Part shown: positions 11,845-33,011 of the stretch, piece by piece
How the letters are laid out: the number at the start of each line of letters is the position of its first letter
Numbering within the stretch: the first letter of the stretch is position 1
Source of the DNA: a virus
Direction: 5' to 3' (one strand)
Virus record (IMG/VR): IMGVR_UViG_3300037336_000053
Coordinates: 32,001-96,000 of that record
Length of the DNA: 64,000 bases
Notes under the pieces: generated by a model
The model's input: only the letters and a program-made list of their open reading frames with translations
Told to the model about the DNA's origin: nothing
Databases searched by the model: none
Program-made: the position numbers and the translations under genes

Positions 11845-12837
11845 TTAGTCTCCAAAGTCAAACAAACTATTGAACGTGTTATGACTCTTAGTATCCTCTA
11901 ATGGATAGTTAAGCACACCGATCAAATTATCTAACTTATTATCAATAATTGTTTCTGCCATTGCTGCATCATCAAACGGAAGTTCTTTAAACCATTCAGG
12001 CATACGCAGCTCGTCTGTCGGATAAGCAACACTAGTGTACCCTAATGGATTCTGCTTGAGCTTACAAACAATAACTTTCATACCATCAACAATCTCCTGC
12101 GAGTATTTGTCACCATTCATACGCTTGAGTGTATTCCAGTTAATACTTGCCCTAACGTGTCCAGGCATATTAGCCTTGCCGGCTTTTTCTTCTAAGCGAC
12201 GATAATGTCCAACTTTGTTTGCACGTTTCGGACTACCTTTCTCCCAACCTGGCCGTTCACTAAATGCTAAACGAAATTGAGTAATACGTTCTAGCACATC
12301 AGTTTGCGGCTTATCTGTAAGTACCATAAGCAACAGCTCGCTTAAAAACTCTTGCATAAACACAGGAGTATCACTTCTACGTAAGTCTAAGCCCATGGCT
12401 TTTACTTTACCAGCTTTACCGTCTACGTCACTGCGGAAACCTTCTGTATCAATTACTAGAGCTGCATAACGCTTCTTAGTAATAAACAATCCGCTTTCTG
12501 CAACAATTTCACGACCTGCTGCAATAACAACACTTCGACTCTTTGGGCAATGGAATGATTTTGCCATCATATCTGGGAAGGTTATATTAGCTGCTTCTGA
12601 TACTTGATCGTAAAGTGTAATAACATTCTCTTTAGTCCAAGGAATATTGCCTGCCTTAATTTCATTTTGTAAAGTAGGCCAAGCACTAAAGTAGACCGAA
12701 TCTGTGTTATGAACCAAATGTCCATTTGCAAAGAAAAACGGATCGTCTTCGGCAATGCTTATATCATATACGTACTGGTCGCCTGTGTTTGGTATCTTTT
12801 CTACGCTTGCTACTCGTTGTCTTATTACTTCAGCCAT
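11845..12837 (-). CDS. polB: DNA polymerase B C-terminal half preceded by the 44-aa C-intein of a split intein
   Basis: MAEVIRQR...VYDISI...FFFANGHLVHN|TDSVYF; then FITKKRYA, KVKAMGLDLRRSDTP and PGHVRASINWN. Confidence 0.92.
   Translation of the reverse strand: MAEVIRQRVASVEKIPNTGDQYVYDISIAEDDPFFFANGHLVHNTDSVYFSAWPTLQNEIKAGNIPWTKENVITLYDQVSEAANITFPDMMAKSFHCPKSRSVVIAAGREIVAESGLFITKKRYAALVIDTEGFRSDVDGKAGKVKAMGLDLRRSDTPVFMQEFLSELLLMVLTDKPQTDVLERITQFRLAFSERPGWEKGSPKRANKVGHYRRLEEKAGKANMPGHVRASINWNTLKRMNGDKYSQEIVDGMKVIVCKLKQNPLGYTSVAYPTDELRMPEWFKELPFDDAAMAETIIDNKLDNLIGVLNYPLEDTKSHNTFNSLFDFGD
12706..12837 (-). mobile_element. split intein C-fragment (IntC, 44 aa)
   Basis: Block F VYDISI, block G HLVHN, +1 residue Thr. 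Confidence 0.9.
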
Positions 12838-13769
12838 GTTATGCACCTTTGAATTATTGTTTTAGGATCAGCCAAATACTCTGACTCCCATATGATTAGT
12901 GTGTCTATGTTACGCTTATCTTTTAATGCTTGAATCTTCTTTGCATCTTTTTCCCATACGTGTCTTGCTAATAACTCAGATTGTGGATGATACCAGTTTT
13001 CAGCGTATTTGTTAGGATTGCAATGCCAGTAGTCGCCATTAAATTCTATTGCTTTGTCATTGTGTACAATGTCATAAAAGTTCGGCTTGTCATTTGCCCA
13101 AATGCAATATTGTTTCGTTTTGTAATAATAGCGCAATTCTTCTTCCAGTGCAGACATTATTTCATCAGCAAACTGCTTTTCTAAATTACTTGAATATTTT
13201 TCTGACTGTTTATAATTAGCAATTATATCTAGTGCTACTGCTTCATCACAGTTGTTTCTTTCCATTACTACATCTAGTGAGTGTGACTTTATTCTACACA
13301 CTTCATTGTACATGTCTGTACCAGTTGTAGTACCAAACTTTTCTATGAAATATTCCTTTGTGTTTGTGTATGCCTGTCTATCGCAATATGATTGCCATTT
13401 AATAGCACCTGTCACTTCACCGTGCCGTTCTATTAAGTTTTTTAATGTAACAGCTCTTGATTTATTATATTCATCAAAGTCGGCTTCGGTCCATCCATGT
13501 TTCTCTTGTTTGTATTGCAGCGTATTAGAATACGCTTGTTTTCTTTTATAATCATCCCATGCAGCTTGACCCTGCACTGTTCCGTATTTCTTTTGCATAT
13601 TAACCAGTGTGCAGGCTGTTGACTTAGCAAACTCATCGTCTACTAGTTTAGCATGGGGATATGCGATTTTGTATTCTTTACCGTTCTTAAACTTTCCAGT
13701 ACATTTATAAAAAAAATGTGTCCACTGTAATCTTTTTGCGACTGTGCCGCACTCTATACATTTTGGCAT
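12825..13769 (-). mobile_element. free-standing Vsr/DUF559-like (PD-(D/E)xK) homing endonuclease between the polB halves
   Basis: C-terminal SNLEKQF...YDIVHNDKAIEFNGDYWHCNP...WEKDAKK...LIIWESEY; N-terminal CxxC and repeated KYG/KHG helical units. Own AGGAG and an upstream TAAATA. Confidence 0.85.
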
Positions 13770-13834
13770 GACTATGGTGATACTCCTATCGTTGTATGCT
13801 TGCTATACTTATTTAACATCATAGTCAAAAAACC

Positions 13835-14194
13835 CTACTTAGCAAGAGTAATAACTAAATCATTTTCTTGTAAATCTGTTGCCTTTATTTCCAGTAAGAA
13901 CCCATCTCGGTCTATCATTAAACTGTGATCTTCTGTTACTGTAACCGACGTTCCGTCTTCCATTGTTACCTTGTATAATTGCTTAGAAGTTTTATGACGC
14001 ATAACATAGTTCATTTTAGAAATAGTAATTTTATCATTTAATGCATGGAATCCAAGTGTTGTAATGTCCGAGTCGTTAAACATTGCATATTCCTTTCCAC
14101 TAGGATGTAATACTTTATCCTCAACTGCATCAAACAAATCTTCAATTGCAATCATGCCATTTGATGTGTTAATCATCGAATCACCGGTAACGCT
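13835..14194 (-). mobile_element. split intein N-fragment (IntN, 119 aa)
   Basis: Starts SVTGDSMI directly after YGD; block B VTVTEDHSLMI; ends IKATDLQENDLVITLAK-stop. Confidence 0.9.
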
Positions 14195-16006
14195 ATCACC
14201 ATAGATAACAGCATCACCAACGTGATCGTAAACTCCAGTAATAACTTTATTAACTTCTGCACTCATATGCTTAACAATAGTACGACCAGTAAGTGTAGTT
14301 GACTGTCCAATACGCTTATCAAAGAAGCGGCAACCAGGGTTAAGAATAGCACCATACAAACTGTTAAGCAAAATCTTCTTAACTAGCTGACGTTTATCCC
14401 AATACTCAATCTCTGCCTTATTACCTGCATCCTTAGCTTTCTTCAGCTTTGCTTGTAACTCTTTACGTTCACCATACCAACGCTTTAGAATACCTGGAAT
14501 AACACCTTCAAACTCTTGTGTAAAGATTGTACCATTGCTACTAAGCATCCATGGATTATTACTGTCAAATACTAGTTTGTAAATCTCTGCTCCGCTCATT
14601 ACTTCAGACTGGCCGTTTTCAAACTCAATAGTAAGTGCAACATCTTTACGTTTGGCCATAACAGCATCGTATTCTTCTGTTGCAAAGCGACCTTCCCAAC
14701 TACCGGCGAAGCTCTGTTTCTTAAGACCCATGTCTTCTGCTACACGAGCTTCTGATATGTCTGGACGAATTTGTCCTACAAGAGTTTCTGGAGCCATATT
14801 TAACGCACGAATCACTGAAGGGTACAGTGAGTTCAAGTCCATTGACCCAATCCACTTGTGCAAGCCCTTCTTAGGGAACGCAACATATGCGCCAGCAGCT
14901 TGTGTATTTTCTTCGTCGTCTCTATTCTTACGATTAGGAACTTGCAAGCCCCTGTGATGCGCTTCGTTAATAATACCCTGTTCAGTAACAGCAACGGCAC
15001 CCATTGTAGTTTGAATAAGCACTGTATTCTCGTGTGCAATAGTATTGCTTAATTCAATAAAGCGCAGTTTCCTATCCAGCTTGTCCAGCAGCGCAGTATC
15101 TTGAATGTTATATTCAATAAACTTTTTAAAGTCATTGTTATAAAGTTGATCCAATGTACCTTCGTATGCTGTCTTGTTTTCACCTACTTCAATTTCACCA
15201 ATAGCATCTAGTCGATAGCTGTGGCGTTCTTCATAGGTATACTTACGATACAAGTTTAAACTGTCCAAGTGTACACGACCAATCAAGTCATATGTTTCGC
15301 TTTCTTTACCAAACTTTTCGTAAATGCGCTTCTTAGGCAACTGACCCCACAAGCAAAACCGTCTTGTGTCATCTTTACTTAATACACGAGCTACACGATT
15401 GACAGTGTAGGGAATATCATAGCCTTCGCTGTTCCAACCACTTATTACGTCGCTGTCTTCAATAATTGTTAAGAACGTGTCTAACATGTCCTTTTCTTTA
15501 GCAAACAGCATTACGTTAGGAATATCTTTAAGCAACTCAGTCGCAGCTTCCATTGTAAGTGTTTTAGGAGGCACTGCTAAACACACCATTGTTTCTAGCC
15601 ACTGCAAATAAACGGAGATAGACGTAATGCCCATAAACGGATCGCTAGGATCTGCAAAGCCGCGCTCTGGGTCAAAGTCTGTCTCAATGTCGAAAAATGC
15701 AATATTTAGTTTAGGTGCGTCTTGGTTAAGGTAGTTTTCACTTAGACACTGAAAGATTGGATTAATGTCGCTTTCAAACAGCGTTTTGTCTCGATTGATT
15801 GCAATTTCCTTGCGGAAGTCTTTTGTATTCTTAGATACAATACGACTCAACGGATCACCGTACACGCTCTTGTACTTGCCCTTTTGATCCTTATAGTAAA
15901 ATGTATATTTTACAGGTTGTTCACGGAATATTCTAGCTCCGTCTTTTCGTTCAACTATCTTGATCAGATCATGATCACGGTCGAAAAATGCGTCTACATA
16001 ACTCAA
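13835..16006 (-). CDS. polB: DNA polymerase B N-terminal half (3'-5' exonuclease plus motifs A/B) fused to IntN
   Basis: FFDIETD, GWNSEGYDIPY, YNIQD, SMDLNSLYPS, KILLNSLYG, VIYGD|S. Confidence 0.95.
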   Translation of the reverse strand: MSYVDAFFDRDHDLIKIVERKDGARIFREQPVKYTFYYKDQKGKYKSVYGDPLSRIVSKNTKDFRKEIAINRDKTLFESDINPIFQCLSENYLNQDAPKLNIAFFDIETDFDPERGFADPSDPFMGITSISVYLQWLETMVCLAVPPKTLTMEAATELLKDIPNVMLFAKEKDMLDTFLTIIEDSDVISGWNSEGYDIPYTVNRVARVLSKDDTRRFCLWGQLPKKRIYEKFGKESETYDLIGRVHLDSLNLYRKYTYEERHSYRLDAIGEIEVGENKTAYEGTLDQLYNNDFKKFIEYNIQDTALLDKLDRKLRFIELSNTIAHENTVLIQTTMGAVAVTEQGIINEAHHRGLQVPNRKNRDDEENTQAAGAYVAFPKKGLHKWIGSMDLNSLYPSVIRALNMAPETLVGQIRPDISEARVAEDMGLKKQSFAGSWEGRFATEEYDAVMAKRKDVALTIEFENGQSEVMSGAEIYKLVFDSNNPWMLSSNGTIFTQEFEGVIPGILKRWYGERKELQAKLKKAKDAGNKAEIEYWDKRQLVKKILLNSLYGAILNPGCRFFDKRIGQSTTLTGRTIVKHMSAEVNKVITGVYDHVGDAVIYGDSVTGDSMINTSNGMIAIEDLFDAVEDKVLHPSGKEYAMFNDSDITTLGFHALNDKITISKMNYVMRHKTSKQLYKVTMEDGTSVTVTEDHSLMIDRDGFLLEIKATDLQENDLVITLAK

Positions 16007-25316: not shown

Positions 25317-26018
25317 CTATTTATCAATATTTGTATTGTATACTAATTTGTCTATTCGCGACAGTTTACCAACAAATAAATTTAATAGTTGTATTATCTT
25401 ATCATCTCTAGCATAAAAATACATACCTCGAACGTAACCTCCGCGTTCGATAGTTTCTAAACACGTATTACCTGCTTTAACTTTGTCAGAATTATTTCTA
25501 ATCCAGTTGGCTAAATTTTTATCACAAGAATACCCCAATGTAACTTTATATAGATAGTCGGCAGGGCGATTAACTAAAATAATATTTTTATCCAGTATAG
25601 ATACGTTACCAGCTTTGGGTTCCCATAGTTCTTTAGAAGATTTAATCTTTAAAGCTAGCATCGCTAACCAATCGTAATTATGTGAGTATATTTGCATATA
25701 TGGATTAGATATACGAAGTTTAAAATCACGTTGTTTACAAAACTCTATGTAAATATTTTTAGCTTCAAAGAATGTATCAAGGTCAACTGGATACTTATAT
25801 CCATACGAGCCCCTAACAAGGGGCTCGTTTGAATCGTATTTTTGTTGTAATACATCTAGTTCTTCTTTCGCATTTGAAAGATTTTTATCTCTAAACAAAT
25901 ACGAAAGTCCGTTTACTACAACTAGTTTATATAGATACTCGTCATAAAACAGTTTAGTAGTTTCACACTTGATCAACAGTTTCATTAACTTCCACCTTGA
26001 GTACAATAGCATTGTCAA
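25317..26018 (-). CDS. hypothetical protein (start probably MKLLIKCE)
   Basis: ORF track. Confidence 0.7.
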   Translation of the reverse strand: MTMLLYSRWKLMKLLIKCETTKLFYDEYLYKLVVVNGLSYLFRDKNLSNAKEELDVLQQKYDSNEPLVRGSYGYKYPVDLDTFFEAKNIYIEFCKQRDFKLRISNPYMQIYSHNYDWLAMLALKIKSSKELWEPKAGNVSILDKNIILVNRPADYLYKVTLGYSCDKNLANWIRNNSDKVKAGNTCLETIERGGYVRGMYFYARDDKIIQLLNLFVGKLSRIDKLVYNTNIDK

Positions 26019-28209
26019 CTACATCAATAGTCAAATTGCCTCCGTCTTTAAGTTTTCCAAACAGTAGTTCTCTTGCAAGTGGCATTTTAATTTCTTTATC
26101 AATAACACGTTGCAACGGACGAGCACCCATCTTAGGATCAAATCCTTTGTCTACTAAGTAGTCAAGTGTTTCGTCAGTAATAGAGATTTTAACACGTTTG
26201 TCTTTAACTTGGTCTTTAAGTTCAACAAGGAACTTACCAACAATTTTAAGCATGATCTCTTTACCAAGTTTAGCAAATGTAATCACACCGTCTAAACGAT
26301 TGCGGAACTCTGGACTAAAGAATTTCTTAAGAGCTTTATCTTCGTAAGAATTATCTTGGAAGTCTCCGCCGAAGCCGATGCTATTCTTCTCTGAATCAGC
26401 AGCACCTAAGTTAGTAGTAAGGATTAGTACACAGTTACGTGCGTCTGCTTCTTTACCATTAGATCCTGTGATCTTACCATTGTCCATAATTTGCAACAAA
26501 ATTTGACTAACATCAGGGTGTGCTTTTTCAATCTCGTCTAGTAGTAATACACAGTTAGGATTTTCTTGCAACTTAACAATAAGTTGTCCTGCACTATCTT
26601 CGTGACCAACATATCCTGGAGGCGACCCAATCAGCTTACTTACACTGTGTTTCTCTTGATATTCACTCATATCAAAGCGTACAAGTTTAACACCTAGGTT
26701 AGTAGCAAGTGCTTTTGCAGTTTCAGTTTTACCTGTACCAGTTGGACCCATAAACACAAAACTACCAATAGGCTTGTCTGCTGATTTTAACCCTGCTTGT
26801 GCAACAAGAATCTTATCAACAATACTTTCAACTGCCTTATCTTGCCCGTATACTTGACGTTTGATGTTACGTTCAAGATTAGCAAGATTTTCAGTTTCTC
26901 TTTCGCTTACTTGTTCTTCAGGCAAGTTAACTGCTTTAGCAAGTTCGTATTGGATCTCAAATGCATCCACAATTTTATCACCGATTACTTCTTTCAGATT
27001 AAAACGTGAACATGCTTGGTCTATTAAATCAATTGCTTTATCAGGCAGCTTCTTATCTGCTTGATATTTTACTGAAAGTTTAATTGCTTCGTCAATCGCT
27101 GCTTCAGTAATAGTAGTTTTATGATAGTCTTCGTAATACTTTTTAAGACCAAGCAAGATATCTTTAGTCACACTTGCTGTAGGCTCATCAACTGTAACAC
27201 GTTGGAATCGACGCATCAATGCACGATCCTTTTCAAAGTACTTGCGATATTCTTCCCAAGTGGTAGATGCAACAACTTTAATGTTACCTTTGCTCAATGC
27301 AGGTTTTAACATGTTAGCAAGGTCATTAGCACTATTACCTCCGCCCGCGCCTGCTCCGCTAATCATGTGTGCTTCGTCAATAAACATAATAGTTTTGCCT
27401 TTTTTCTTTAAGGCTTGAAGGACTAGTTTAAAACGTTCTTCAAAGTCACCACGATATTTACTACCAGCAAGCATACTACCAATGTCTAGATTATAAACAT
27501 TGTAGTCTTGTAGGAATGCAGGAACAGTTTTCTGTTCAATATTAAATGCTAGGCCTTCTGCAATAGCAGTTTTACCTACACCCGGATCACCAACTAGCAA
27601 TACGTTGTTTTTATTACGACGACCTAATGCAAGAGCAATTGCATCCAATTCTTCTTTACGTCCAATAACTGGATCAATAGTTTTCTTTTTAACTTCGTCG
27701 TTGAGATTAGTTGTAAATGATCGCAGAGCTTTAGCTGCTGCACCGCTCATTTCTTCTTCTTCTTCGACTTCCACTTCGCTACTTAGATAGCTAGCAAACT
27801 TATCCTTGACAATACCTGCTTGATCACAGTAGAATGCTGCGTGGGATTTCTTCTCACTGATAATGCTTAACATCACATCGCTTAGTTCAATATGACTACG
27901 ACCATTAAACAGCGTCTGTGTAAACGCACGATTCAAACAGCGTTCGACAGTTTGTGTCTTCTTAGGTTTAAATTTTTCAACTTCTGTTTTAATGTCGTCG
28001 CAACTATTTTTTAGATAATGTTCTAGATTAGATTTTAGATAATCAGGATCAGCACCGAACCCTTTAACTAGATTGTAAAAGTTTTCACTGCACAACATTG
28101 AGAACAACAAATGCTCTAGTGTAACATATTCATGTTTTAATTTCTGAGCATCTTTGACAGCCTTATCAAATACTAGTTGTAGATCTTTACTTGGTTCAAC
28201 CATTTGCAT
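25963..28209 (-). CDS. clpA: ATP-dependent Clp protease ATP-binding subunit ClpA
   Basis: HEYVTLEHLL N-domain; GDPGVGKT and GPTGTGKT Walker A; IDEAH, LLLDEIEKAHPDV and GARPLQR. Confidence 0.95.
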   Translation of the reverse strand: MQMVEPSKDLQLVFDKAVKDAQKLKHEYVTLEHLLFSMLCSENFYNLVKGFGADPDYLKSNLEHYLKNSCDDIKTEVEKFKPKKTQTVERCLNRAFTQTLFNGRSHIELSDVMLSIISEKKSHAAFYCDQAGIVKDKFASYLSSEVEVEEEEEMSGAAAKALRSFTTNLNDEVKKKTIDPVIGRKEELDAIALALGRRNKNNVLLVGDPGVGKTAIAEGLAFNIEQKTVPAFLQDYNVYNLDIGSMLAGSKYRGDFEERFKLVLQALKKKGKTIMFIDEAHMISGAGAGGGNSANDLANMLKPALSKGNIKVVASTTWEEYRKYFEKDRALMRRFQRVTVDEPTASVTKDILLGLKKYYEDYHKTTITEAAIDEAIKLSVKYQADKKLPDKAIDLIDQACSRFNLKEVIGDKIVDAFEIQYELAKAVNLPEEQVSERETENLANLERNIKRQVYGQDKAVESIVDKILVAQAGLKSADKPIGSFVFMGPTGTGKTETAKALATNLGVKLVRFDMSEYQEKHSVSKLIGSPPGYVGHEDSAGQLIVKLQENPNCVLLLDEIEKAHPDVSQILLQIMDNGKITGSNGKEADARNCVLILTTNLGAADSEKNSIGFGGDFQDNSYEDKALKKFFSPEFRNRLDGVITFAKLGKEIMLKIVGKFLVELKDQVKDKRVKISITDETLDYLVDKGFDPKMGARPLQRVIDKEIKMPLARELLFGKLKDGGNLTIDVVDNAIVLKVEVNETVDQV

Positions 28210-28705
28210 GTTCCTTTATTAATTTCTTTTGTTTCTTTTTAGCCATTGATAATTTTAATTTACTTGTTCTATCAGTAAATTCAATTCCTTGAAGATGATC
28301 ATATTCGTGTAAGAAGCAACGTGCATCTATCCCACTAAACTGTAGTATACACTCTTTTGCATCAATGTCAAGAAACTGCGCCACCAAACGTTTAGGTCTA
28401 TTAACATTTAATATTAATCCTATGTGACTTAAACATCCTTCTTTCCCTGTAACTGTGTCTTCGCTAATTTCTAATATAACAGGATTAATTACTGCAAAAG
28501 GTTTAGTAACTTCTGCATGTTCAACGGGTCTCATAACAAAAATCTGTGCATCTAATCCAACTTGATTAGCAGCAAGCCCGAGGCCATTCTTTGCCATCAT
28601 TATTTGACACATCTCTCCGGTAATTTGTTTAGCATCCATTGTTTCAAATTCAAAAGGTTTTACAGCCTTGTTTAAAAAATCATTAGGAGAGCTTATTAAT
28701 TTCAT
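28196..28705 (-). CDS. def: peptide deformylase
   Basis: [15 protein letters not shown] and HEYDHLQG. Confidence 0.95.
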
Positions 28706-29525
28706 CTTTTATATCCTTTAGTCTTTGTAATATTTCTTCGTCTTTTATTTTTGGAATGTCTGCTTCAACTTTGATATGTGCATTACCTGGCCTTCTTGTA
28801 TTTACATTAGGCACACCTTGTCCTGATATACTAAAGACTGTTCCGGGCTTAGTTCCTTTTGGTATAGTTAAACTAAAATGCTTATTTGCAGGGGTTGATA
28901 TTTCTATGTTAGTTCCTAACATTAAATCAAATACAGAAATGTTTTCTGTTGTAATAATATTATCATTATCTCTAGTCCACTTTGGATGAGGTTGAACTTT
29001 AATATTAAGAACTAAGTTTCCTCTTGGCACTTGCGGGAAACTATCATCTCCCATACCACCAAATCGAACACTATCATTTTGTTTCACGCCTGGCGGAACA
29101 GCAGCATCTAGTATTTCTGTTTTTCCGCTAGGAAGTCTATATTGTATGTTAACAGCTTTTCCAGTAAACAATTCTTCAAATGTCAGTCTATATTCTATTG
29201 TAACATCTCTATTGCGGGGTTGTCTACTCTGTTGGCCACCAAACCCAGGATTTGTGCTATATTGACGGAACAAATCTTCAAACGAACCTGTATTACCCCC
29301 AGCATTAAATCCTCGACTATTATTAAATTTAGGTTGAGGATTGTCGTATTCTGAACGTTTTTGCAGATCACTTAGTGTAGCATACGCTTCTTGAATTTGT
29401 TTGAACTTAGTATCATCACCGCCATTGCGATCAGGATGGTGCTGCATCGCAAGTTTGCGATATGCTTTTTTTATTTCTTCTGGAGTAGCGTTGCGAGCAA
29501 CACCTAAAAGTTTGTAATAGTCCAT
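28683..29525 (-). CDS. DnaJ class II (CbpA-like) co-chaperone
   Basis: DYYKLLGV...HHPDRN J-domain, G/F region, C-terminal substrate domain, no Zn finger. Confidence 0.92.
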
Positions 29526-30266: not shown

Positions 30267-30857
30267 TTAGCTGATCAATTCATATCGTGCAGTTGCTTTA
30301 TTAAACATCACCAACCCCTGTTTCACTAGGGCAAAGACAATACTCTCAGATTCGGCATGTAGTTTATTGTGTTCTGCTACGCTGGTCAGAAACAAATTTT
30401 CTATTTTATTATTTTTTTTATCGCCATCGATGTGATGTACTATTTCTCCGCGGGCGAGTCCTCGTTCTAGATAACATTCCATTACAAACAAGTGTTCCCG
30501 TATACACCTATATCCACCTTTTCTATAGGGATAATCTTTGCCTATATAAACTTCTGGATATCCATCTTTACCATTAACCACCTTCCCTAAGTTAGGTATA
30601 AATTTATTCACAACTTTTGAATCGTATCCTGCAACACTAGCGAGTTTATTTAATCCCACTTTGCTAATACAGGTTTTACAATATGCTTTCACATTGGTAT
30701 CATACTTTCCATTTCGTGCTTTGGAAAATTCTATAGTACAATTATCACACTTCCAATGCGTTAAAGTTTTAGTTCGAGTATATTCTGTAAGTTTGGCAAA
30801 CTTACTTTTTTTTGTATAGGCATTAGTTTCTGTGGTTTCAAATAGGAACATGTACAT
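30267..30857 (-). mobile_element. HNH homing endonuclease
   Basis: IREHLFVME...EIVHHIDGDKKNNKIENLFL...EHNKLH; N-terminal CDNC/CKTC zinc ribbon. Confidence 0.85.
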
Positions 30858-30918: not shown

Positions 30919-31245
30919 TTAAATACGAAAGCTACTACCACAACCACAACGATCGCGTTCGTTTGGGTTTGAGAAATCAAACCCTTCATTTAATCCATTA
31001 CGTATCCAATCTACTGTCATACCATCTAAGTATGCTAGTCCTTTGGCATCTATTAACACTACAAATTCAGGCTGAGCAAAATTGGTTACGCCTGCTTCTG
31101 CTTCATACACATCTACATACTCAAAAGTATACGCCAACCCACTACATCCTGTAGTTTTAACACCTAGTCTAACTCCGTCACCGTGTCCACGATGTTTAAG
31201 AAGCTGTGTTATTTTTTGCTTAGCCTTGTCTGTTAAGGTAATCAT
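30919..31245 (-). CDS. iscA: A-type Fe-S carrier IscA
   Basis: GVKTTGCSGLAY, F-S-NPN and CGCGSSF. Confidence 0.92.
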   Translation of the reverse strand: MITLTDKAKQKITQLLKHRGHGDGVRLGVKTTGCSGLAYTFEYVDVYEAEAGVTNFAQPEFVVLIDAKGLAYLDGMTVDWIRNGLNEGFDFSNPNERDRCGCGSSFRI

Positions 31246-31272: not shown

Positions 31273-32664
31273 TCAATGCTTGGCTCGGTAATCTGCCACC
31301 GCTGCTTTGATAGCGTCTTCTGCAAGAATACTACAGTGTATCTTAACAGGAGGCAGTGATAGCTCTTCTGCCAGTTCGCTGTTCTTGATCGCGCCTGCCT
31401 GATCTAGAGTCATACCTTTGACCATTTCAGTAATCAAACTGCTGGAGGCAATGGCTGAACCACAATTATGTGAACCTACTCGTTCTGAGAAAAACACATG
31501 AGCGCCGTCTTCCAATTTAAGATCGTATACCACAACCTTCTTATCATCCCGTTCGCACCCTCTTAGTTGATTGTGATGAGTAACCGCTGACACTGACACA
31601 ATTTTCATGCCATTGTGGATAAAGTTTTGTACCTGTTTCAACGAGGTATCAATTTCTTCTACAGCTAAAAATAAGGAGTCATATCCGGCTGAAGCTAATT
31701 GTTGCTTACGATTTACCACATAATCGGATTCATCAGATCGATCCTGCATAAATTTTGGCATATTTTTAGTGTATACTTCGATGCATTTTTTCTTGCCAGG
31801 AACAACAAAGTCTGGACTAACTGGCCCAGTACTTGATTGTATCCATACTTTACCTGAACACCATTTTGCAGCTACGTTATTTTTTTCAAACAAGTTAATA
31901 TATTTTTGTTCTATGCTAGTTGGGACGGAACGGTCTATATTCGCCATACCTTGTCTCCATTTATCCACATATACAGGATTTCCCCAATTTTTTCTGGAGG
32001 CTTCTGCCGATCGTTGTTTTTTTAACGGCAAATCCTTGCACACATATCCTGGCTGATTTTGCGGTAACACAGAGTGGTCAAACTGTGTATTCCACTCTGT
32101 CATTCTTTTGCTGTTTTTTTCTTTCAAATCAACTCTGTGTCGATTGTTAGTGAGAATCCTTAACTCATGTTCAGTGATTTCATACAGTTCTTGCCCAGCC
32201 ACTAGTTGTTGTGCTTCAACTGGAGTGTTATCAGCGTTCCAAAAAATATGTTCTTTAGTACATATTAGACTAAAAGTTTTAGATTTAATATTTTTTCTAC
32301 TTGTTTCTCTTTGAAACGTTACTACTAATAAATCATCAATTGTAACTGAATGTTTGAGTACCGCTCGAATCTTTTGATTAACGATGTTAGTTCCGTTCCA
32401 CGCTAATACTTCGTCACCAATGATTAGGTCACTTATTTTTTTTGATTTGGTTGGAGTATTGATTAGTGCATTACTAGTAAGGCAGCCATACGTTTTAAAA
32501 CGCGCATCAATGATAACATCGTCTACGACTTTGATTTGCAACTTCATCACGTCACCACAAGCTGGCGCGCCGACCATTCCAGTACCAACGGTTTCGTCTA
32601 TTTCAAACTTTCCCACATTGCGTGGATTTTCGTAGTGCTCGACTACTGCTGCTGAATATGCCAT
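31273..32664 (-). CDS. iscU: Fe-S scaffold IscU interrupted by an intein
   Basis: MAYS..V.EHYENPRNVG, GAPACGDVMKLQIKV, FKTYG|...|CGSAIASSSL, LSLPPVKIHCSILAEDAIKAA. Confidence 0.95.
   Translation of the reverse strand: MAYSAAVVEHYENPRNVGKFEIDETVGTGMVGAPACGDVMKLQIKVVDDVIIDARFKTYGCLTSNALINTPTKSKKISDLIIGDEVLAWNGTNIVNQKIRAVLKHSVTIDDLLVVTFQRETSRKNIKSKTFSLICTKEHIFWNADNTPVEAQQLVAGQELYEITEHELRILTNNRHRVDLKEKNSKRMTEWNTQFDHSVLPQNQPGYVCKDLPLKKQRSAEASRKNWGNPVYVDKWRQGMANIDRSVPTSIEQKYINLFEKNNVAAKWCSGKVWIQSSTGPVSPDFVVPGKKKCIEVYTKNMPKFMQDRSDESDYVVNRKQQLASAGYDSLFLAVEEIDTSLKQVQNFIHNGMKIVSVSAVTHHNQLRGCERDDKKVVVYDLKLEDGAHVFFSERVGSHNCGSAIASSSLITEMVKGMTLDQAGAIKNSELAEELSLPPVKIHCSILAEDAIKAAVADYRAKH
31465..32484 (-). 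mobile_element. 340-aa intein in IscU with a Vsr-like endonuclease domain
   Basis: C1 = CLTSNALI; block B ICTKEHIF; block F VYDLKL; terminal SHN; +1 Cys. Internal PTSIEQ...SPDFVVPGKKKCIEVY. Confidence 0.92.
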
Positions 32665-32681
32665 TATGTTATCCTCTTATA

Positions 32682-33011
32682 TTAAACTGAAAAACTGCTG
32701 CCGCACCCACATGTACTTGTAGCACCTGGATTAGAAATACTGAAGCTGCTGCCTTGCAAGTCTTCTTTATAATCTACGACCGATCCAACTAAATATTGCA
32801 TACTCATAGCATCAATTAGAACAGTAACATTCTCGCGTTCTATTGTGAAGTCGTCATCATTCTGCACTTCATCTAATGTAAATCCATAAGTGAACCCGCT
32901 GCATCCACCACCTTGAACAAACGTTCTAAGTTTAATTTCAGGATTATTTTCTTCAGCAAGAAGATCTTGTATTTTTACAAATGCTGCTTCGGTTATTGTT
33001 AATTGATCCAT
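32682..33011 (-). CDS. erpA: A-type Fe-S carrier, ErpA-like
   Basis: [25 protein letters not shown] and TCGCGSSF. Confidence 0.88.

Follow-up and report, generated by a model that had tools for sequence, protein, structure and literature searches.

We analysed a 64,000-nucleotide stretch of the IMG/VR virus record IMGVR_UViG_3300037336_000053 (positions 32,001 to 96,000; hereafter the window), in which an iscU gene on the minus strand is interrupted by the coding sequence of an intein. The gene encodes a precursor of the iron–sulphur (Fe-S) cluster scaffold IscU, and the insert stands directly before the codon equivalent to Cys63 of Escherichia coli IscU. In all likelihood it is a genuine, splicing-competent class-1 intein, built from a HINT splicing domain with an embedded Vsr-like, EDxHD-related nuclease domain, that persists as a selfish mobile element. 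The record to which the window belongs is 123 kb long, with a completeness of 35% as estimated by CheckV, and close relatives of the protein sit on contigs of 266–353 kb; the source is a large uncultured salt-lake phage. The features of the locus are collected in Table 1.

When the precursor was compared with the PDB by phmmer, residues 1–63 of E. coli IscU (2l4x) aligned with residues 1–61 of the query and residues 63–124 with residues 401–462 (E 4e-50). Since this alignment spans the gap, the 340-residue insert lies directly before Cys63, which is one of the three cluster-ligating cysteines of IscU. Joining the 60- and 63-residue exteins yields a 123-residue IscU. An earlier note on this DNA had assigned the same coordinates, an N-extein ending in FKTYG, a C1...HN intein and a C-extein beginning with CGSAIASSS, and had identified the +1 nucleophile of splicing with a cluster ligand; all of this held when checked against the open reading frame (ORF) and the alignment, in which C401 pairs with the E. 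coli Cys63. PF01592 (NifU_N) matches the precursor in two stretches, with 151 bits against a cut-off of 22. TIGR01999 (iscU) likewise matches in two stretches, and its score of 185.9 bits falls just below the cut-off of 192.4 because the match is split. The ligand set Cys37, Asp39, Cys63, His105 and Cys106 is fully represented, by C36, D38, C401, H443 and C444 respectively. Before splicing, this set is divided between the two exteins, and the precursor therefore cannot be a scaffold. In a model of the whole precursor (pLDDT 80.1), both extein parts have IscU-like secondary structure.

Conservation was assessed in 46 aligned homologues (A1) and, more widely, in 121 relatives, to which the counts given below refer. 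A search with the precursor returned 757 matches of 254–811 amino acids; the best 120 are 405–486 amino acids long and 64–98% identical to the query, with coverage of 100% in 114 cases and of 87–98% in the other six. C401, H443 and C444 are invariant, and C36 and D38 are kept in 119 relatives, the remaining two having gaps. Among the splicing residues (intein numbering, with ORF numbering in brackets), Cys1 (C61) is found in 120 of the 121 sequences, with a single gap. The T-x-x-H motif of block B (T76/H79; T136-K-E-H139), the block F aspartate D321 (D381), the block G pair H339-N340 (H399-N400) and Cys+1 (C401) are present in every one, and the block F histidine H329 (H389) in 119. C75, beside block B, is nearly invariant. 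Because the 121 relatives have the architecture in common and every splicing residue is conserved, the arrangement is far beyond chance.

An AlphaFold2 model of the intein (mean pLDDT 84.7) shows that its two ends form a HINT domain, which matches many solved mini-inteins over some 130 residues (Z 15–19, root-mean-square deviation (rmsd) of about 2 Å). The top match is the gp41-1 intein (6QAZ), with a Foldseek E value of 3e-5 and a sequence-profile E value of 9e-4. Together with other cyanophage-like metagenomic mini-inteins, gp41-1 provides the closest solved HINT domain and shares with the IscU intein an origin in phages and metagenomes. However, the mini-intein gp41-1 is naturally split, interrupts a helicase and lacks a nuclease, whereas the IscU intein is contiguous and contains one. 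Pfam searches with the intein alone gave sub-threshold Hint matches only, and no match to a nuclease family or to NUMOD. Cys1, block B, blocks F and G, the +1 cysteine, the HINT fold and an insert that can be removed in frame, with intein-free alleles to match, identify the element as a class-1 intein.

Table 1. Features of the interrupted iscU locus and its immediate neighbours (window coordinates).
Feature	Position	Strand	Basis
iscU precursor ORF	31273..32664	(-)	463 amino acids, stop codon included; open frame
N-extein, residues 1–60, last letters FKTYG	32485..32664	(-)	matches E. coli IscU 1–63
Intein, 340 amino acids, class 1, ORF residues 61–400, CLTSN...VGSHN	31465..32484	(-)	invariant splicing columns, HINT fold
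HINT N-terminal part, intein residues 1–105	32170..32484	(-)	best Foldseek match gp41-1 (6qaz), fold matches to mini-inteins with Z 16–19
Helical linker, intein residues 106–188	31921..32169	(-)	helices 105–181 in model
Vsr-like / EDxHD-related nuclease domain, intein residues 189–294	31603..31920	(-)	fold matches to 3r3p_B, 3hrl and 1cw0; homologues; conservation
HINT C-terminal part, blocks F and G, ending SHN	31465..31602	(-)	conservation, fold matches
C-extein, residues 401–463, first letters CGSAIASSS, Cys+1 = ligand Cys63	31276..31464	(-)	matches E. coli IscU 63–124
IscA/HesB-type A-type carrier gene, upstream neighbour of iscU	32682..33011	(-)	Pfam Fe-S_biosyn, 2.4e-18
Second IscA/HesB-type carrier gene, downstream neighbour of iscU	30919..31245	(-)	Pfam Fe-S_biosyn, 7e-16

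The metagenomic origin of the record, and nothing further, could be held to favour an assembly artefact in which unrelated DNA was mis-joined, or a dead pseudogene in which the insertion inactivated iscU. We give such an origin practically no chance. Of the words sampled from the locus, 71% or more occur in each of 20 sequencing runs, which come from as many studies of salt-lake and freshwater metagenomes; the likely source sample accounts for one of these runs and the other 19 are separate from it. Single contigs bridge both intein–extein junctions in three of four runs examined (X2, 31442–32549; X15, 31442–32541; X14, 31442–32510), and these are independent assemblies from several studies. 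Moreover, the frame runs open through 463 codons and has counterparts in more than 120 relatives, and the splicing residues and IscU ligands are all conserved. A chimera, which the earlier note had named as fatal to its proposal, is ruled out by these contigs, and they and the conservation in 121 relatives refute the pseudogene as well. Two features of the contigs were set aside. X14 and X15 contain a joint from 31465 to 32549, but one of its sides is only 23 letters long and the gap exceeds the intein by 63 bases, which makes it too weak to be used alone. The summed contig depth was higher over the exteins than over the intein, and such depth is unfit for ranking parts of a gene. No RNA run is among the sequencing runs listed as holding the locus.

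The insertion site is polymorphic in the phage population. IMG/VR holds at least 599 iscU loci, and the best 80, which were kept, comprise 7 intein-bearing and 73 intein-free loci. In blastn comparisons with intein-free phage iscU alleles, the alignments stop on one side at 32482 and restart on the other at 31464 (L044, L054), 31455 (L009) or 31437–31440 (L010, L011, L031). Both forms were found in one metagenome. A contig of run X15 has the N-extein joined exactly at 32483 to codons for GSAIASSSL, and this end, a clearer sign than the weak joint mentioned above, marks an intein-free allele that coexists in the sample with the intein-bearing form. As intein-free alleles are prevalent, also within the same sample, the intein is dispensable. 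Across the intein-free alleles, codon positions 1 and 2 are near-invariant around D-A-(K/R)-F-K-T-Y-G/C-G-S-A-I-A (the slash marks the insertion point), and the site is the most conserved stretch of iscU, a type of site where homing elements persist. The counts of loci and the intein-free allele in the same metagenome also bear out the earlier suggestion that phage iscU is conserved enough to sustain homing. Among 50,697 phage records, megablast with the locus found no match, and tblastn found intein-free phage IscU only.

Divergence between alleles provided information on the history of the insertion. The extein halves of the window share 80–87% nucleotide identity with the closest intein-free alleles (L013, L010) and 64–74% with intein-bearing loci; L010 is 92.8% identical across iscA and the N-extein, where the alignment stops at 32482. 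For four of the intein-bearing loci (L002, L003, L004 and L008), the proportion of synonymous differences (pS) was 0.55–0.68 in the inteins against 0.74–0.82 in the exteins, and that of non-synonymous differences (pN) was 0.08–0.11 against 0.12–0.20. The inteins of these loci are less diverged than the exteins and are therefore younger than their host alleles. At the same site we also found mini-inteins from which the nuclease has been cleanly deleted, namely P0125 (294 amino acids), P0141 (282 amino acids) and the gene of L091 (283 amino acids). The full-length intein shows purifying selection in all of its parts (pN 0.12–0.17, pS 0.66–0.77), and mean identity among the relatives is 76% for the nuclease, 74–77% for the HINT parts and 79% for the exteins. 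On the extein protein tree at least eight changes of intein state are needed, only one of them forced by well-supported branches. Overall, the population data agree with a classical homing cycle, in which an intein invades, is fixed in some lineages, suffers decay of its nuclease and is lost.

Between the two HINT parts lie a helical linker and the nuclease domain. The linker is the least conserved part of the intein (mean identity about 65–66%) and is possibly a NUMOD-like DNA-binding region; in the model a helical region of some 80 residues precedes the nuclease, and free-standing homologues carry NUMOD3, which finds no counterpart in the Pfam matches of the intein. The top structural match of the nuclease domain is the catalytic domain of I-Bth0305I (3r3p_B), with a Z of 9.8 and an rmsd of 3.0 Å over 94 of 98 residues, followed by a DUF559-type protein (3hrl, Z 8.9) and Vsr (1cw0, Z 8.3), obtained with intein residues 184–294. 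An exhaustive phmmer search with the intein alone against 1.84 billion representatives gave 129 matches. They include free-standing proteins of 200–320 amino acids with NUMOD3 and DUF559, which align over the nuclease region, and related inteins in radical S-adenosylmethionine (SAM) proteins, NrdD, a DegT-type aminotransferase and a transglutaminase-like protein. With the nuclease piece alone, phmmer found no meaningful match in the PDB and none of significance to 3R3P, and the link to I-Bth0305I is that given by the fold search and the free-standing homologues only.

What defines the EDxHD family is a set of catalytic residues like those of Vsr, including an aspartate metal ligand and a histidine general base, which are D196 and H213 in I-Bth0305I (PMC3239194; Taylor et al., 2011). 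Canonical relatives have the motif IEVFGDYWH where the IscU inteins have IEVYTKxMPKFMQ, so that both the histidine of GDYWH and the aspartate ahead of it are replaced in all IscU inteins examined. As the GDYWH motif has no match in these inteins, we term the domain EDxHD-related and stop short of assigning it to the family. The two nevertheless have a Vsr-type fold in common, both are tied to phages and to metagenomic inteins, and the free-standing relatives carry NUMOD motifs before the nuclease; the EDxHD family (PDB 3R3P, PMC3239194) also includes Vsr-like ORFs found in ‘fractured genes’ that have split inteins. Unlike I-Bth0305I, the IscU nuclease is embedded in a contiguous intein and lacks equivalents of H213 and of the aspartate in GDYWH.

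The altered motif raises the question of whether the element is a fixed, domesticated intein with a dead nuclease. In that case the domain would have been retained for folding of the HINT domain or for binding DNA or protein, and the intein would spread by ordinary recombination only. Every IscU intein examined lacks the D-x-x-H part of the EDxHD motif, which speaks for this idea, as does the lack of a match to the domain among the Pfam nuclease models. We nonetheless regard it as rather unlikely. All 121 relatives keep the candidate metal ligands E192, D225 and E236, as well as K233, R259, H290 and N291. Many of the free-standing homologues, which have no reason but nuclease activity to persist, likewise lack the EDxHD histidine, and this suggests a subfamily with a different general base. 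In addition, the domain has been cleanly deleted in the mini-inteins, where it is not needed, and inteins younger than their host alleles point to recent spread.

A canonical EDxHD/Vsr-like endonuclease is also encoded elsewhere in the window. The gene for a family-B DNA polymerase (11845–16006, minus strand) is broken at the catalytic YGD/TDS motif by a naturally split intein. The ORF of the N-terminal part (13835–16006) carries a C-terminal IntN, starting with SVTGDSMI and having TEDH as block B. The ORF of the C-terminal part (11845–12846) starts with an IntC (VYDISI...GHLVHN), which is followed by TDSVYF. The endonuclease ORF lies between the two halves (12825–13769) and has the motif IEFNGDYWH. 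BLASTP detected no similarity between the IscU intein and this polB-associated endonuclease ORF of the same genome.

The reading that we prefer is that of a splicing intein maintained as a selfish element. In this scheme, which follows standard intein chemistry, the precursor would be translated first and Cys1 would undergo an N–S acyl shift, after which Cys+1, the future Fe-S ligand, would attack the thioester and Asn340 would cyclise. The 60- and 63-residue halves would thereby be ligated to a normal 123-residue IscU, and only then would all ligands come together in one fold. At the DNA level the intein would be a selfish passenger in the most conserved stretch of iscU. It would spread between co-infecting phages through recombination into intein-free alleles, presumably initiated by the nuclease, and would occasionally be lost or decay to a mini-intein. 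Mechanistically, everything seen is ordinary intein biology.

Several points weigh against this reading. Actual splicing, cleavage of DNA by the nuclease and homing are steps that we infer. A nuclease without the EDxHD histidine general base may, judging from its motif, be inactive or act by another mechanism. In the window itself the difference in divergence between intein and exteins is small, and the values are saturated. Furthermore, on the extein protein tree all intein-bearing sequences could form one clade by an approximately unbiased (AU) test, which gave no grounds for rejection (p 0.47). The extein is too short for the tree to count as evidence for repeated gain, and we dropped it from that argument; repeated gain or loss rests on nucleotide comparisons of short, partly saturated sequences.

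The position of the insert at a cluster ligand, with Cys1 next to it, also invites the idea, put forward in the earlier note, that splicing could be gated by redox state or metals and control the Fe-S supply of the phage. Oxidation, through a disulfide between Cys1 and Cys+1 or another one, or binding of Zn, Fe or Cu would keep the precursor unspliced, so that the supply of scaffold would track the redox or metal state of the infected cell, and the intein would be kept for this benefit. Both catalytic nucleophiles are indeed cysteines, C75 by block B is nearly invariant, and the intein, nuclease included, is under purifying selection almost as strong as that on IscU. However, generic Cys1 and Cys+1 and the near-invariant C75 are all that the sequence offers, with no feature specific to gating, and a Cys1/Cys+1 pair is the most frequent arrangement among inteins and is found in most of class 1. 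The intein-free state of 73 of the 80 best phage iscU loci, and the occurrence of both forms in one sample, argue that the intein is dispensable, and the mini-inteins and the inteins younger than their hosts match a selfish life cycle. Inteins generally insert at functional residues, because such sites are conserved homing targets. We therefore consider gating improbable.

Demand for Fe-S clusters is nevertheless evident from the genome context, in which iscU has an IscA-type gene on either side. The 32 kb before the window (G000:C1:506-31983) contain seven Radical_SAM matches, four of them above the Pfam cut-off, and the genome thus codes for several radical-SAM clients, a further point in favour of conditional splicing. 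Such a density of Fe-S client enzymes is unusual for a phage. Ferredoxin, which the earlier note had listed among the possible clients, was not found, and neither Fer2 nor IscS has a match within the 123-kb record. If gating did operate, it would amount to a post-translational gate kept in part of the phage population, by which working IscU scaffold for the several radical-SAM enzymes would be delivered only when the infected cell is reducing and metal-balanced; we hold out only a slim chance of this. A smaller novelty, though a likelier one, would be active homing by the Vsr-like nuclease domain despite the missing histidine, through catalytic residues arranged in a new way.

Two known systems resemble the IscU intein most closely in their relation to Fe-S biology. 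The Mycobacterium tuberculosis SufB (Pps1) intein is likewise a class-1 intein with Cys1 and Cys+1 in a core Fe-S assembly protein, and in both precursors splicing is required before the assembly machine can work. The SufB intein is not known to be inserted at a cluster-ligand residue and has a LAGLIDADG-type nuclease; its host is the SUF scaffold of a cellular organism, whereas that of the IscU intein is the ISC scaffold in a phage. The intein of Pyrococcus abyssi MoaA is redox-trapped, with a Cys1/Cys+1 pair able to form a disulfide and a host protein from Fe-S biology. Inteins of this MoaA type share the cysteine pair and the Fe-S host with the IscU intein, in which a disulfide or metal site would be hypothetical. 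The SufB intein stands as the standard example for stress-sensitive splicing (PMC8891592). The precedents for redox- or metal-sensitive inteins on which conditional splicing of IscU could draw include M. tuberculosis SufB and M. smegmatis DnaB (PMC8891592, PMC6195587).

A full-text literature search for inteins together with IscU, NifU or Fe-S cluster assembly found no paper describing an IscU intein, in agreement with the earlier note, whose author knew of none. The novelty is, however, smaller than had been claimed, for the same insertion is widespread in metagenomes; as far as can be seen, the IscU intein is unpublished but not rare. The ISC pathway is centred on the scaffold IscU, and the residue used for transesterification in splicing is among the three cysteines of IscU that bind the cluster as it forms. 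The locus therefore offers a small natural setting in which to ask whether the chemistry of inteins and that of Fe-S clusters disturb each other. Large aquatic phages carry the element in abundance, and metagenomes show the empty site, the full intein and the mini-intein; the element is thus well suited to studies of how inteins behave in populations when their hosts are auxiliary metabolic genes of phages. The Vsr-like nuclease without the histidine could also add to the known range of homing nucleases.

Around the interrupted gene, iscU lies between two iscA genes (Table 1), and by tblastn synteny the iscU–iscA adjacency is kept in most to nearly all related phage loci. Immediately downstream of the iscA–iscU–iscA block is a free-standing HNH_3 endonuclease ORF (30267–30857, minus strand). 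This ORF is absent from the related loci examined and is therefore a second mobile-element candidate at the locus. Beside the Fe-S genes, the region 25963–29525 (minus strand) encodes a 748-residue ATP-dependent, Lon-like protease, a peptide deformylase and a full-length DnaJ.

The intein or its mini form was also found in two contigs binned to bacterial metagenome-assembled genomes (MAGs), L090 and L091 (Crocinitomicaceae, 2.1 kb; Fischerella, 24 kb). The Fischerella contig appears phage-derived, judged only by its iscU–iscA pair and otherwise unfamiliar ORFs. Both look like phage DNA mis-binned into MAGs, and neither was taken as evidence for a cellular host of the intein. In a related intein-bearing iscU (L006:4209-5594), a TGA stands in the C-extein where all other alleles have a Trp codon (LVTE*VKG); a nonsense mutation, an error in sequencing or a context in which TGA encodes Trp could account for it. 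Finally, the metagenomic IscU proteins P0133 and P0135 contain two inteins, one at the Cys37 site (GAPA/C...N/CGDV) and a mini-intein before Cys63, so that IscU variants with a second intein exist. Their N-termini resemble organellar targeting peptides, and these proteins may therefore be of eukaryotic or giant-virus origin.

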